Assembly (NCBI GenBank): GCA_964424415.1
Contig: CAYRIT010000004.1
Coordinates: 3,868 to 67,867 of the forward strand
DNA: 64,000 bases
From: an uncultured Hydrogenophaga sp.
GTDB taxonomy: Bacteria; Pseudomonadota; Gammaproteobacteria; Burkholderiales; Burkholderiaceae_C
Direction: 5' to 3'
Shown here: piece after piece, positions 53,857 through 60,659 of the stretch
How positions within the stretch are numbered: position 1 is the first letter of the stretch
Layout of the letters: every line of letters starts with the position of its first letter
Notes under the pieces: model-generated
What the model saw: the letters and a program-made list of their open reading frames with translations, nothing else
What the model was told of the DNA's origin: nothing
Database searches by the model: none
Translations under genes and position numbers: made by a program

Positions 53857-55932
53857 ATGCAACCCACTGCCATCACCGATTCAACCGCATCCGACCCCGC
53901 CGATGCCGCCGCTGCGGCAGCGCAACGCATTGAAGAACTTGAACAGGCCCTGGCCCGCGCGCAATCGCTCTACGAAAGCGGCCCCTGTGGCTATTTGTCG
54001 ATCGATGCCGACCTGCGTGTGATCAACATCAACCAGACGCTCAAAACCTGGCTGGGCCTGACCGATTTCGACGTCACCCGCAAACCCAAGGTACTGACGT
54101 TCACCGATGCGCAGTGGCACGCGTCCATCGAAGCCCGCATGACCGAGCTGAGCACAAAAGGCCATTGCGAACCGCTTGAGATGACGATTCAGCGCAGCGA
54201 CGGGACACCGCTGCACGTTGTGTTCAGCTTGGCGCCAGTGTGCGACACCCAAGGTCGATTTCTCTACTGCAATGCGATGGTGCAGAACACCGATCCGCTC
54301 AAAGCCGTTGAAAAGAAGCTGGCTGAGCAGAACAGCTTTTTGCTGTCCATCACCGACCGGATTCCGGCCCGCCTGGCCTATTACGACAAGGACCTGATCT
54401 GCCGCTTTGCCAACAAAGCACAAGCCGCGCGGTATGCCAAAACCCCGGCGGAAATGGTCGGCACACCGATCAGCGACGTGATTCGGCCCGAAGCGCTTGC
54501 CGACATACTGCCGCGTGTGGCCAGCGCACTCAGCGGGAACGCACAGACCTTCGAAGTCCAGCGCGAACAGAAAGACGGGTTGCGCGAGACTTTCCTCTTG
54601 AGCTACGTCCCGGACATCCAGCCCAGCGGCATCGAGGGCGTGTTCATCGAAGTGCAGGACATCACCGACCGCAAACGCACCGAAGAGTTTGTGCTGGAGG
54701 CCAACCGCGATCTGGAGGAACGGGTGCGCGATCGCAGCGCCGAGCTGTTCCAGAGCGAGCAGCGCTACCGCCTGATGGTCGACGCCATTCAGGACTACTG
54801 CATCTACTTCGTCGACGCCGCAGGCGTGATCACCGACTGGACCGAGAGTGCGCAGCGCCTGCATGGCCATCACCGTTCGCAAATGCTGGGCCAGCCCTAC
54901 CAGCAGCTGTTTGCCAGCAGCACCGGCGGCGAAGACGAGGTGGACGCGGCCCAGGTGCTGCGGCTGGCACAGACCCATGGCCAGTGGGAAACCCGCGGCT
55001 GGCGCCTGCGCGACGACGGCTCGCGCTTCTGGGCACACACGGTTCTCACCGCACTGCGCAACGAAGCGGGTGAACTGCAAGGCCTCTCCAGCATCACGCG
55101 CGACATGACCGCGGCCAAGAGCCTGGAGGACGTGATGAACGACCTCAACCGCGAACTGGAGAAACGCGTGGCCGAGCGTACCCAGCAACTGGTCGCGGCC
55201 AACAAGGACCTGGACGTGTTCTCGCACATGGTCTCGCACGACCTGCGCGCGCCGCTGCGTCACATCTCCAGCTTTGTGAGCCTCCTGCTCGAGCACATGG
55301 GCGAGACCAGCGACAAGCTGGCGCTGCAGTACCTCAACAGCATCGCCAAATCCAGCAAGCGCATGAGCCACATGATCGAAGGTCTGCTCGAGTACGCTCG
55401 GCTGGGCCGGGTCACGATCGATGCGCAGCCGGTGCCGCTGGCGCCGCTGCTCGAAGGCGTGATGGCGCACCTGCGCCAGGACAATCCCGGGCGCGCGATC
55501 GAATGGGTGGTCGAGGACGACCTGCCGGTGGTGCGTGGCGACGCCATGCTGCTGGCCCAGGCCTGGGGCAATCTGCTGAGCAACTCGGTGAAGTACACCC
55601 GGCCGCGTGCCACCGCGCGGATCGAGATCGGCTGGAAGATCAACCCGGTGGGCGGACGCACTTTTTACGTGCGCGACAACGGCGTGGGCTTCAACCTGGA
55701 AAAGGCCCACAACCTGTTTGTCATGTTCCAGCGACAGCACCACTCGATGGACTTCGAGGGCACCGGCACCGGACTGGCACTCGCGCAGCGCATCATCGAA
55801 CGCCACAACGGGCGCATCTGGGCCGAAACCGAGGTGGGAGAAGGCTGCACCTTCTACTTCACCCTGCCCTTCGACGGCCTGGAACCCGAGCTGGACTTCC
55901 CCAAATCCGCCATGGCCGAACTCACGATCTGA
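53857..55932 (+). CDS. Soluble multi-PAS sensor histidine kinase (about 3 PAS domains, HisKA, HATPase_c)
   Basis: N-terminal Ala-rich coiled coil, then three PAS-like repeats (around aa 35-150, 165-285 and 300-420). H-box FSHMVSHDLRAPLRHI, N-box LLSNSVKYT, G1 VRDNGVGF, G2 GTGTGLALAQ. I see no TM segment. Confidence 0.92.
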   Translation: MQPTAITDSTASDPADAAAAAAQRIEELEQALARAQSLYESGPCGYLSIDADLRVININQTLKTWLGLTDFDVTRKPKVLTFTDAQWHASIEARMTELSTKGHCEPLEMTIQRSDGTPLHVVFSLAPVCDTQGRFLYCNAMVQNTDPLKAVEKKLAEQNSFLLSITDRIPARLAYYDKDLICRFANKAQAARYAKTPAEMVGTPISDVIRPEALADILPRVASALSGNAQTFEVQREQKDGLRETFLLSYVPDIQPSGIEGVFIEVQDITDRKRTEEFVLEANRDLEERVRDRSAELFQSEQRYRLMVDAIQDYCIYFVDAAGVITDWTESAQRLHGHHRSQMLGQPYQQLFASSTGGEDEVDAAQVLRLAQTHGQWETRGWRLRDDGSRFWAHTVLTALRNEAGELQGLSSITRDMTAAKSLEDVMNDLNRELEKRVAERTQQLVAANKDLDVFSHMVSHDLRAPLRHISSFVSLLLEHMGETSDKLALQYLNSIAKSSKRMSHMIEGLLEYARLGRVTIDAQPVPLAPLLEGVMAHLRQDNPGRAIEWVVEDDLPVVRGDAMLLAQAWGNLLSNSVKYTRPRATARIEIGWKINPVGGRTFYVRDNGVGFNLEKAHNLFVMFQRQHHSMDFEGTGTGLALAQRIIERHNGRIWAETEVGEGCTFYFTLPFDGLEPELDFPKSAMAELTI

Positions 55933-56099
55933 GTCGGAGGCAGCCGTCTCACGGCCGGCCATCGGCGGTCTTGCAGGCAGTTTCGGCACGCCGTTCGAGC
56001 GGCGCCTGGCTCTGCCGGTCCCTCGCCCGAATGCGCACAAACTGAAACTCCCGTAACGGTCCATGACGGCCGGTTGGCGGCTCGGTCGCCGGGCCTAAC

Positions 56100-59309: not shown

Positions 59310-59336
59310 CTCCCGTTGTCACCCAGGAGGAACATC

Positions 59337-60659
59337 ATGAACGACACCATGACAAACAACGTGCTTTGCTGCCCGGCGCTGGAGACCGACAAGGTCTGTG
59401 ATGTGCTGGACTTCCATTACCGGATGGTGCACAACACCTCGGTGCTCGCCGGGGGCCGGCGCGTGCAGGTCGAGGTGACCGTGCATGCACGCTACGAGCG
59501 CTGCCCCGGGCCCATGGCCCTGGGCGATCTGGTCTATAGCAACACCTTGCTGCCCGGCGAGAAGGTCCGGCTGTTCACCGCCGACCGGCGCAGCCGCTTC
59601 AGCTTCGACACCGCAAGCCGGGTCAGCTACCGCAACGAGCAGACCTCGGAAGAGCGTTTCTACATGGCCAGCGTGCACGACTTCATGAGCGATCTGACGG
59701 TGCGCGACAGCGGATCGGCCTCGGCCGAGTCCCACGGCTCGGCCCAAGGCCATGGCGGCACCAGCGGCGCGATCCAGAGTTTTTTTGGCGGCGCGTCGGT
59801 TGACGTCAGCGGTTCCTACAACGCGTCGTCCACCAACTCGTTCCTGCGCGAGTTGTCGCAACACGCATCGGCCTCCGACCGGCGTGCCGAGGTGGGCACG
59901 CGCGCGGCCAGCAGCGTGTCGGTGGGTGAAGTGCAAAGCCGCACCCACACCGAAGGCGAATCCGAAGACCATTTCGAGTCGGCCTCGCGCGAGTTCTCCA
60001 ACCCCAACCACTGCCACGCGGTCACCTTCTTTTTCTACCAGATCAACAAGACCCAGAAGATCCGGTTCACCATCGAAGCGATCCAGCGCCGGGTGATCGA
60101 TCCGGTGGCCAACACCCGGGTCAGCCACAACCCGTTTGTGGCCGATGGCGACGTCGGCACCATCCCCAACGCGGTGCTCGCCACCGACGAGACGCGGCTG
60201 AAGAAAGAGGAAATCGGCCGCCAGAGCGCGGCCGCACGGCTGCAAGCGGCCTCGGCCGCCCAGCTCGGCAGCAACAACCTGCTGCTCGCCTCGCGGCTCA
60301 ACATGGCGGCCACCAGCACCGTGGAGCCGATCACACCGGCCATCGCAGCCAAGGCCTTGCAGCAGGTGGACCAGGATCTGATCAAGCAAGGCCTGCTGGA
60401 CAAACGCGGCCAGCTGAGCGAGGAGGTGCGTGCCTCGCTTTCCTTCGAACGCGTGAGTTCCGTGCCCACCCCCGGGCTGCTGGTCAAGGGCTGTCTGGAC
60501 GAATGCAATATCTGCGAAGAAGCCGTTGTCCTGTCCCGGAAGCTGGATCTGGAACGCCAGCAATTGCAGAACGAGCTGCTCAAAAAACAGATCGAGCTGC
60601 TGGCGCAGTCGCAGGAATACCGCTGCTGCCCGGCCAGCGAGATCGAGGCACCCGCCTGA
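59337..60659 (+). CDS. Hypothetical protein, 440 aa, Cys-rich with a Ser/Gly-rich centre and helical C-terminus, no recognised family (orphan B)
   Basis: ATG at 59337 with AGGAGG at 59325-59330 (6-nt spacer), 27 nt after the stop of orphan A. I checked by reading that third codon positions are strongly G/C in this frame. I saw no signal peptide or TM helix. Confidence 0.8.
   Translation: MNDTMTNNVLCCPALETDKVCDVLDFHYRMVHNTSVLAGGRRVQVEVTVHARYERCPGPMALGDLVYSNTLLPGEKVRLFTADRRSRFSFDTASRVSYRNEQTSEERFYMASVHDFMSDLTVRDSGSASAESHGSAQGHGGTSGAIQSFFGGASVDVSGSYNASSTNSFLRELSQHASASDRRAEVGTRAASSVSVGEVQSRTHTEGESEDHFESASREFSNPNHCHAVTFFFYQINKTQKIRFTIEAIQRRVIDPVANTRVSHNPFVADGDVGTIPNAVLATDETRLKKEEIGRQSAAARLQAASAAQLGSNNLLLASRLNMAATSTVEPITPAIAAKALQQVDQDLIKQGLLDKRGQLSEEVRASLSFERVSSVPTPGLLVKGCLDECNICEEAVVLSRKLDLERQQLQNELLKKQIELLAQSQEYRCCPASEIEAPA

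Follow-up and report, generated by a model that had tools for sequence, protein, structure and literature searches.

What do two large proteins do that lie side by side, belong to no recognised family and are nevertheless kept from bacteria to archaea, and which of the genes around them belong to the same system? The question is raised by two genes, here called A and B, in a stretch of 64,000 nucleotides from an uncultured Hydrogenophaga sp. (contig CAYRIT010000004.1, positions 3,868 to 67,867 of the forward strand; this whole stretch is referred to as the window). The original prediction had placed them, together with a histidine kinase and an AraC-type regulator, in a four-gene island encoding a signal-regulated effector or structural module. 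A and B form an undescribed module, unplaced by five profile libraries, by the PDB sequences and by two structure libraries. The comparison of loci shows B and an A-like protein to be an old, co-inherited but facultative module of bacteria and archaea. In the window the two genes share a three-gene cassette with the regulator, and the kinase is a backbone gene that lies outside it. The genes of the cassette are:

56100-56933, plus strand: regulator, the first gene of the cassette, an atypical receiver domain fused to an AraC/XylS-type helix-turn-helix (HTH); 277 amino acids (aa)
57138-59309, plus strand: gene A, 723 aa from ATG; 79.9 kDa, pI 6.3, 16 Cys, 19 Trp
59337-60659, plus strand: gene B, 440 aa from ATG; 48.1 kDa, pI 5.8

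The A and B families

Neither protein matched a profile in Pfam, NCBIfam, PADLOC or PHROGs, and profiles of A and B gave zero matches at E ≤ 10 against the PDB sequences; the view that both lack a recognisable family was thus upheld. Both are also full length and conserved across phyla, as expected of real genes and not of shadow open reading frames (ORFs), which had likewise been claimed. At least 431 homologs of A were found, all of them unnamed or "hypothetical" and devoid of Pfam domains, and no mention of their public accessions was found in the literature searched. Homologs from Polaromonas-like bacteria are 72-85% identical to A; the figure is 64% for Massilia, 55-60% for Syntrophus, Smithella, Longilinea, Nitrospira, Chlorobiaceae and Aestuariivirga, and 55-56% for the archaeal Methanothrix and Methanoperedens. 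A pattern-based scan covering one representative genome for each of 185,579 species confirmed at least 87 carriers of A, scattered over at least 10 phyla. Identity does not track taxonomy, as some Gammaproteobacteria stand at 40% and archaea at 56%, and this departure requires horizontal transfer of A. The B family is larger, with at least 2480 homologs, the best 120 of which are 67-88% identical, and with 603 clusters at 50% identity in an exhaustive profile search among 1.84 billion representatives. No Pfam domain was found in any distant full-length B member, and a batch scan of B members for recurrent weak family matches found none.

The absence of transmembrane helices and signal peptides, also part of the original prediction, was confirmed for both proteins. 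A and B are soluble, and no transmembrane or other hydrophobic segment was found in them, the maximum 19-residue hydropathy being 1.36, and N-termini are short and polar; sequence inspection and hydropathy revealed no signal peptide, twin-arginine (TAT) motif, lipobox or sorting domain in any subtype.

A is made of familiar domain folds in an undescribed family. Its AlphaFold2 model is all-beta, with a mean predicted local distance difference test score (pLDDT) of 78.6, and comprises two N-terminal transthyretin/CarboxypepD_reg-like sandwiches, a linker and then three or four Ig/FN3-like domains. Invariant residues are present in every domain, and the linker (aa 206-264), disordered and Pro-rich, is conserved in all subtypes. 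One label in UniRef, "Carboxypeptidase regulatory-like domain-containing protein", describes the N-terminus at the level of its fold. Foldseek searches of PDB and BFVD returned only generic tandem Ig/FN3/MG-domain proteins, with query-normalised TM-scores (TMq) of at most 0.2; among the structural neighbours are phage tail tips, C3b, the HPI S-layer protein, RbmA, titin and arrestin. Sub-threshold matches to Big_6 occur in 22 of 60 A members. A heme motif, CxxxCH, was considered in A and rejected, its His not being conserved.

The model of B is poor (pLDDT 57). Its better-modelled parts are long beta-hairpins at aa 22-71, 229-254 and 370-385 and a C-terminal coiled coil at aa 395-427; the central region is Ser/Gly-rich, and the protein is leaderless. 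The best Foldseek match in PDB has a non-significant E of 2.9 with this pLDDT 57 model, the top rows being pore forms of pleurotolysin, C9 and Cry78Aa. In structure, too, both proteins therefore remain orphans, A having only generic Ig/FN3 matches and B no significant one, and the model of B leaves room for what may be a new fold. Several signature blocks of B are kept down to 28% identity: PCCP...CD at the N-terminus, LGDLVY-TTLLPGE, HxEGESEDHxE...N-N-CHAVTY, LPTPG--V-GCLD-C--CEP, the coiled coil and a terminal EYRCCP. The most conserved residues family-wide include E75, R84, R218, N222, N224 and H227. A CX3CX2C motif (C386/C390/C393) is invariant in close homologs. A CCP-x-x-E motif occurs at both termini, as LCCPALETD (aa 10-18, 59364-59390) and RCCPASEIE (aa 429-437, 60621-60647), and is also visible as a direct repeat in the DNA. 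Both terminal CC pairs are invariant in 54 close homologs and lost in the most divergent members. The twin CCP termini could serve head-to-tail linkage, metal binding or acylation.

Partnership of A and B

B is the sole neighbour of A that recurs across lineages. Of about 75 non-redundant genome loci examined, 8 have it, invariably on the strand of A and separated from A by about 80-120 nt, and both orders occur, A-then-B and B-then-A. Seen from B, the commonest neighbour in 80 metagenomic loci and locus L005 is a 700-760-aa A-like protein of one of several subtypes: the window type, A' (L116/L118), A'' (727 aa, eleven loci) and still more remote versions. A' is homologous to A over nearly its full length (23% identical, BLAST E=1e-21), and hhalign matches A'' to the A profile (98.6%, E=9e-16, 573 aligned columns); these divergent A-like subtypes also lack a family match. 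Profile detection places an A-like gene next to B in 20 of 81 B loci, and in 11 of the 26 that have at least 3 kb on both sides. At least 12 non-redundant loci of several phyla have A and B side by side on one strand, with gaps of roughly 30-300 nt. When 12 non-redundant pairs are compared, A and B diverge in step (Spearman 0.88 between their pairwise identities), although the points are not independent, so that a p-value for this correlation is not meaningful. A functional link between A and B is supported by these comparisons, through adjacency in both orders and co-varying divergence.

A relic of B was found in the Acidobacteria contig L061 (5008-5118), where 37 aa of its C-terminus (57% identical, E=1e-8) lie about 125 nt downstream of an intact A; this relic beside a solitary A points to a former pair that has secondarily lost its B. 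In Syntrophus, Methanothrix, Massilia and most other carriers A stands alone, as does B in many loci, for example beside a BTAD regulator. The proposed pairing thus stood in part: adjacency recurs and divergences co-vary, but the pair is facultative and each protein is often found alone.

Some observations concern individual loci. The solitary B of L005 is flanked by a BTAD/Trans_reg_C (SARP-like) regulator upstream (8442-9893) and a gene with an FGE-sulfatase domain downstream (11438-12286); such domains also occur twice among A neighbours, possibly by coincidence. In L132, where B precedes A'', the spacer of about 590 nt (11291-11883) holds a small ORF (MKRMTVA..., about 110 aa) that is preceded by a Shine-Dalgarno site and overlaps the start of A''. 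This ORF is shared by L096, L099, L102, L103, L104, L106 and L112 and has no Pfam match; its coding status is uncertain, one apparent indel not being a multiple of three. A 706-aa neighbour of B in L094 was not counted as an A-like member, its similarity being weak and limited to the C-terminal domain (hhalign 41%).

Apart from B, the surroundings of A are a mixture of housekeeping genes. Among 140 immediate A neighbours in 36 diverse loci, no Pfam family occurs more than 3 times, and no secretion, assembly or metabolic partner gene recurs. PADLOC models matched by the same neighbours are only generic kinase, sigma-54 activator or mad models, with 2-3 members each, and A and B themselves have no match in PADLOC-DB v2 at E ≤ 1. 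A defence island recognised by guilt by association was rejected on these scans, A and B neither matching a defence model nor being enriched beside defence genes; defence, one of the roles originally considered, finds no support in the PADLOC scan or in the gene neighbourhoods.

Borders of the cassette and its proposed control

The cassette lies between two genes:

53857-55932, plus strand: soluble triple-PAS histidine kinase; 691 aa
60774-63938, minus strand: dnaE2-type error-prone polymerase gene, convergent with B

On re-reading the window, the four plus-strand ORFs were found as described, with gaps of 167, 204 and 27 nt between kinase, regulator, A and B, AGGAGG sites with 6-nt spacers and host-like codon bias (G+C at third codon positions 0.887 in A and 0.857 in B, against 0.81-0.86 in flanking genes). 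A stem with a T-run on the 3' side of metK, at about 53707-53733, agrees with the intrinsic terminator proposed there, and dnaE2 bounds the cassette convergently as stated. The kinase carries three PAS domains, HisKA and HATPase_c in Pfam; these matches and those of the regulator agree with the soluble triple-PAS kinase and the AraC-type regulator with a degenerate receiver-like domain of the original prediction.

The kinase belongs to the chromosomal backbone. It has more than 2000 relatives, with full-length orthologs 66-83% identical throughout Hydrogenophaga and other Comamonadaceae. A complete Hydrogenophaga chromosome conserves the block ResB-CcsA-cytochrome c-EngB-lpxL-lpxL-metK-kinase, as do two closer relatives represented by metagenomic contigs; in the Hydrogenophaga lineage (L175-L178) it matches the window upstream of 55932. 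The regulator, A and B were not found after the kinase in the Hydrogenophaga-lineage genomes inspected, where its 3' neighbour is an SDR/FixG/groESL region in one genome and aspS in the other. Conversely, no ortholog of the kinase was found in the screened A or B loci, the only kinase matches being 24-30% identical and several kb off. Since the kinase is conserved without the cassette and no ortholog of it accompanies A or B there, the insert is 56100-60659, and the four-gene, non-syntenic island shrinks to three genes.

The regulator-A(±B) unit occupies three unrelated chromosomal contexts, and therefore moves as a cassette. These are ccdAB and a UvrA-like gene in L171, an acyl-CoA dehydrogenase and a flavodoxin/ABC transporter in L174, and metK-kinase and dnaE2 in the window, where the backbone stops at the kinase. 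The claim that the genes are long-resident does not survive this comparison, and the cassette looks horizontally acquired and then ameliorated. In L171, which is Polaromonas-like, regulator-A without B adjoins a ccdA/ccdB pair (4894-5483) and a gene for a 2036-aa UvrA-like protein (1-4845), a setting that suggests a variable region. A mobile-element origin was rejected: the A and B families, both rare and chromosomal, were found neither in 2.9 million viral contigs (IMG/VR) nor in 72,556 plasmids (PLSDB), no tRNA was found in 45-64 kb of the window, and the cassette borders show no integrase, transposase or convincing flanking repeats.

Some further features of this region concern the kinase and dnaE2. 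As the downstream neighbour of the kinase differs in each genome, its 3' end is a recurrent synteny breakpoint. No response regulator gene is adjacent to it in the genomes inspected, the kinase being a lineage-wide orphan fixed beside metK. No DNA-polymerase gene is annotated within 9 kb downstream of it in two Hydrogenophaga-lineage relatives. The partners expected for dnaE2, imuB and imuA, would fall past the end of the window.

The regulator matches HTH_18 in Pfam with E=5.6e-21 (75 bits, cutoff 33.6) and HTH_AraC with E=3.8e-13, which is the C-terminal double HTH of the AraC/XylS type; its receiver domain reaches Response_reg with a sub-threshold E of 0.0028 only. Orthologs with 45-53% identity lie directly upstream of A in L011, L013, L016, L017, L089, L171 and L174, and 3.3 kb upstream of it in L014. 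These loci belong to Polaromonas, Comamonadaceae and Paralcaligenes, with B present or absent. Its recurrence upstream of A in Burkholderiales bears out the inclusion of this regulator in the A-B unit.

In an alignment with CheY, the position of the phosphate-accepting D57 is occupied by Glu in all 7 regulator copies (motif FLCFEFDTP). These copies keep T87 and have a shortened alpha1 region; K109, kept in the relatives, is replaced by Asn in the window copy. With Glu where the acceptor should be, phosphotransfer from the kinase to the regulator is unlikely. The receiver is probably atypical and phosphorylation-independent, which fits the absence of a co-conserved kinase: the regulator accompanies A in 8 loci without the kinase, and the kinase accompanies metK without the regulator.

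The signals between and before the genes are:

57003-57029, plus strand: operator-like direct repeat GCGCAG-N15-GCGCAG with a 21-nt register, from the alignment of regulator-A intergenic regions of 7 loci
57062-57067, plus strand: -10-like hexamer TATGCT of a putative A-B promoter, aligning with TACACT/TAGACT/TAAACT in relatives
57126-57131, plus strand: Shine-Dalgarno site AGGAGG of A, 6 nt before ATG, read directly
59325-59330, plus strand: Shine-Dalgarno site AGGAGG of B, 6 nt before ATG and 16 nt after the stop codon of A, read directly

The repeat, as GCGCAR-N15-GCGCAG with a TAnnCT box at fixed distance, is the sole alignable block between regulator and A in 7 Burkholderiales loci. No good -35 was found beside TATGCT, and a scan for consensus sigma-70 promoters gave no result; the missing -35 would fit an activator-dependent promoter. 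AraC-type activators usually act from a repeat with a 21-nt register beside a promoter without a good -35. The direct repeat is a probable binding site of the AraC-type activator. A frame of A extended to GTG 56994 exists; longer GTG or TTG starts for A and B were rejected, as the GTG extension would run through the conserved operator and promoter, and as the ATG and Shine-Dalgarno site are conserved. The start of A, ATGGCCACCAAA, is conserved together with its Shine-Dalgarno site in 7 loci, and this conservation, with the operator element inside the GTG-extended frame, identifies the ATG at 57138 as the true start. No terminator-like site was found in the 27-nt gap between A and B, and the two genes are probably co-transcribed, as had been proposed from this gap. 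A riboswitch or leader RNA was rejected, an Rfam scan of 53-61 kb giving no credible RNA element.

Possible functions and known counterparts

We tentatively favour the following account. A three-gene cassette, 56100-60659, would have been acquired horizontally and inserted at the synteny breakpoint just after the backbone kinase. Because of the Glu at the acceptor position, the receiver of its regulator would not be phosphorylated in the usual way, and probably senses something other than a kinase signal. The activator would bind GCGCAG-N15-GCGCAG beside the weak promoter and switch on a bicistronic A-B operon with very strong ribosome-binding sites. B would be the conserved core partner, probably oligomerising through its C-terminal coiled coil and Cys-bearing termini, and A-like proteins would be interchangeable binding or scaffold partners, of several very divergent subtypes, that can also work alone. 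A and B together would be cytoplasmic, reach a high copy number under a specific condition and build a self-assembling structure, and would be neither an enzyme pathway nor a classical defence system. As a whole, a conditionally expressed, high-copy, self-assembling A-B pair under this regulator is plausible, although we would stop short of calling it probable. It is favoured because of the very strong, full-length purifying selection on A and B, the strong ribosome-binding sites and the dedicated activator; strong constraint along the whole length is as expected for proteins that assemble through several interfaces, and the beta-sandwich array of A resembles scaffold, matrix and S-layer proteins (RbmA, Deinococcus HPI, titin FN3). 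The farther-reaching idea that B founds a new fold or family, self-assembling into a lattice, shell or pore and recruiting interchangeable Ig-array A-like partners, and exchanged between bacteria and methanogenic or methanotrophic archaea under strong constraint, is possible but doubtful.

Several findings weigh against a self-assembling pair. In about 65 of the 75 non-redundant A loci, B is absent from the available flank, which reaches 10 kb at most and less where a contig ends early, and 15 of the 26 well-flanked B loci have no detectable A-like neighbour; being so often solitary, either protein must be able to act by itself or with a partner from another part of the genome. The most divergent B members have lost CX3CX2C and the terminal cysteines, and these cysteine motifs are therefore not essential to the family. 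The fold and oligomeric state of B are guesses from a model with pLDDT 57, and no nearby secretion or assembly genes were found for A/B, in addition to their lack of signal peptides and transmembrane segments. The operator repeat occurs once in the 64-kb window, where chance would give 0.27 occurrences, and it owes its significance to conservation across loci within one order only. Finally, a patchy distribution driven by horizontal gene transfer is more typical of conflict genes than of structural ones.

This last point leads to the main rival explanation, a conflict module (abortive infection, or a toxin against competitors or predators) in which the variable A-like Ig-array recognises a foreign target and B is an oligomerising, membrane-perforating effector. 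A rare, patchy, cross-domain distribution that requires horizontal transfer would suit such a module, as would a conserved core with a fast-diverging partner (A, A', A''), typical of effector-specificity pairs; B combines long beta-hairpins with a Ser/Gly-rich segment that contains a short alternating hairpin, its top, non-significant Foldseek rows are the pore forms named above, and some loci lie in variable regions (ccdAB in L171, Rhs/VgrG in L009). We nevertheless consider it unlikely, since PADLOC has no match for A or B, defence or mobile genes are not enriched among the 140 A neighbours, neither family occurs in the viral contigs or plasmids searched, the very high sequence conservation is atypical of arms-race genes, B reaches only E ≥ 2.9 on a low-confidence model, and A is usually solitary. 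That A and B are exported to the cell surface or into a matrix (as adhesin, S-layer-like protein or biofilm scaffold), leaving the cell without a leader or through lysis and forming disulfides outside it, is rather improbable. The tandem beta-sandwiches of such proteins are indeed there, in the all-beta model of A and its Foldseek domain matches; the Ig/FN3/transthyretin-like arrays, Pro-rich spacer and paired invariant cysteines of A are typical of extracellular proteins, its best neighbours include RbmA, the HPI S-layer and phage tail FN3 proteins, and to the sub-threshold Big_6 matches can be added one B-adjacent protein with a weak GEVED domain. But the export or sorting signal that secreted Ig/FN3 adhesins and S-layer proteins carry was not seen in any subtype, secretion genes do not recur nearby, and the family extends to archaea and to anaerobes whose envelopes are quite different.

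The remaining alternatives are less probable again. B could be a metal- or Fe-S-binding redox protein or enzyme, acting through CX3CX2C, HxEGESEDHxE and N-x-N-x-CH, with A as a substrate-binding or docking partner; invariant Cys, His, Glu and Asp clusters in close homologs point this way, as do the residues conserved family-wide, but the cysteine motifs vanish in divergent members, no similarity of B to an enzyme family or fold was found and no metabolic genes are co-located, which makes this reading improbable. The signal-transduction island of the original prediction, with A and B controlled by a receiver-AraC regulator that the PAS kinase phosphorylates, has in its favour four adjacent genes on one strand and a regulator with a receiver-like fold. 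The conservation of the kinase with metK in genomes without the cassette, the absence of its ortholog from the other A/B loci examined, the Glu in place of the acceptor Asp and the conserved Lys lost in the window copy make it very improbable, and the kinase was discarded as a member of the system. That A and B are functionally unrelated and adjacent by coincidence would account for each often being found without the other; it is hardly credible for rare families found as same-strand neighbours in at least 12 non-redundant loci of several phyla, in both orders and with correlated divergence, B pairing with remote A-like subtypes as well.

From Betaproteobacteria to Syntrophia, Chlorobi, Chloroflexi and archaea, A and B retain about 55% identity or more, and they repeatedly travel together. 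Such constraint on leaderless proteins usually marks assembly or interaction with a universal cellular target. The system is tractable, comprising three genes, a predicted operator and a dedicated activator usable as a switch, and cultured carriers include Massilia, Psychromonas, Syntrophus, Rivularia and Baaleninema. An answer for A-B would take two families off the list of "conserved hypothetical" proteins and might bring to light a new module, structural or for conflict; the gain would be modest if they proved to be a mundane pair of stress proteins. Were B indeed to found an assembling family, it would be a previously unrecognised prokaryotic protein machine or structure, here under a kinase-independent receiver-AraC switch.

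Among known systems, A is closest to tandem Ig/FN3 scaffolds (Vibrio RbmA, Deinococcus HPI, phage tail FN3/Big-domain proteins and complement MG arrays), being likewise a string of beta-sandwiches, with Foldseek probabilities of up to 1.0 for one or two domains. It differs from them in a global TM-score of at most 0.2, about 10% identity and no significant Pfam match, and in being leaderless, with a family-specific invariant set of Cys, Trp and Asp and a conserved Pro-rich linker. B shares predicted long beta-hairpins and a Ser/Gly-rich flexible region with beta-pore-formers (MACPF/pleurotolysin, aerolysin-like Cry78Aa, gasdermins) and, with bacterial gasdermins, synthesis without a leader. 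However, its best match at E=2.9 is non-significant, the coiled coil and Cys motifs are additional, and the activating protease or partner typical of those systems was not found near A/B. Encapsulins offer an analogy only, that of a conserved, putatively self-associating protein beside an interchangeable partner gene, both leaderless; no Linocin/encapsulin or HK97 signal was found in Pfam, NCBIfam or Foldseek (with the low-quality model of B), and the partner here is a 700-aa Ig-array protein and not an enzyme cargo. The regulator differs from YesN-type response regulators in the clade-wide Glu for the acceptor Asp, the shortened alpha1, the Lys lost in the window copy and the lack of a cognate kinase co-conserved with it, but with these and with atypical, phosphorylation-independent receivers it shares the C-terminal HTH_18/AraC domain, the N-terminal receiver-like fold and a direct-repeat site in a 21-nt register beside a weak promoter.

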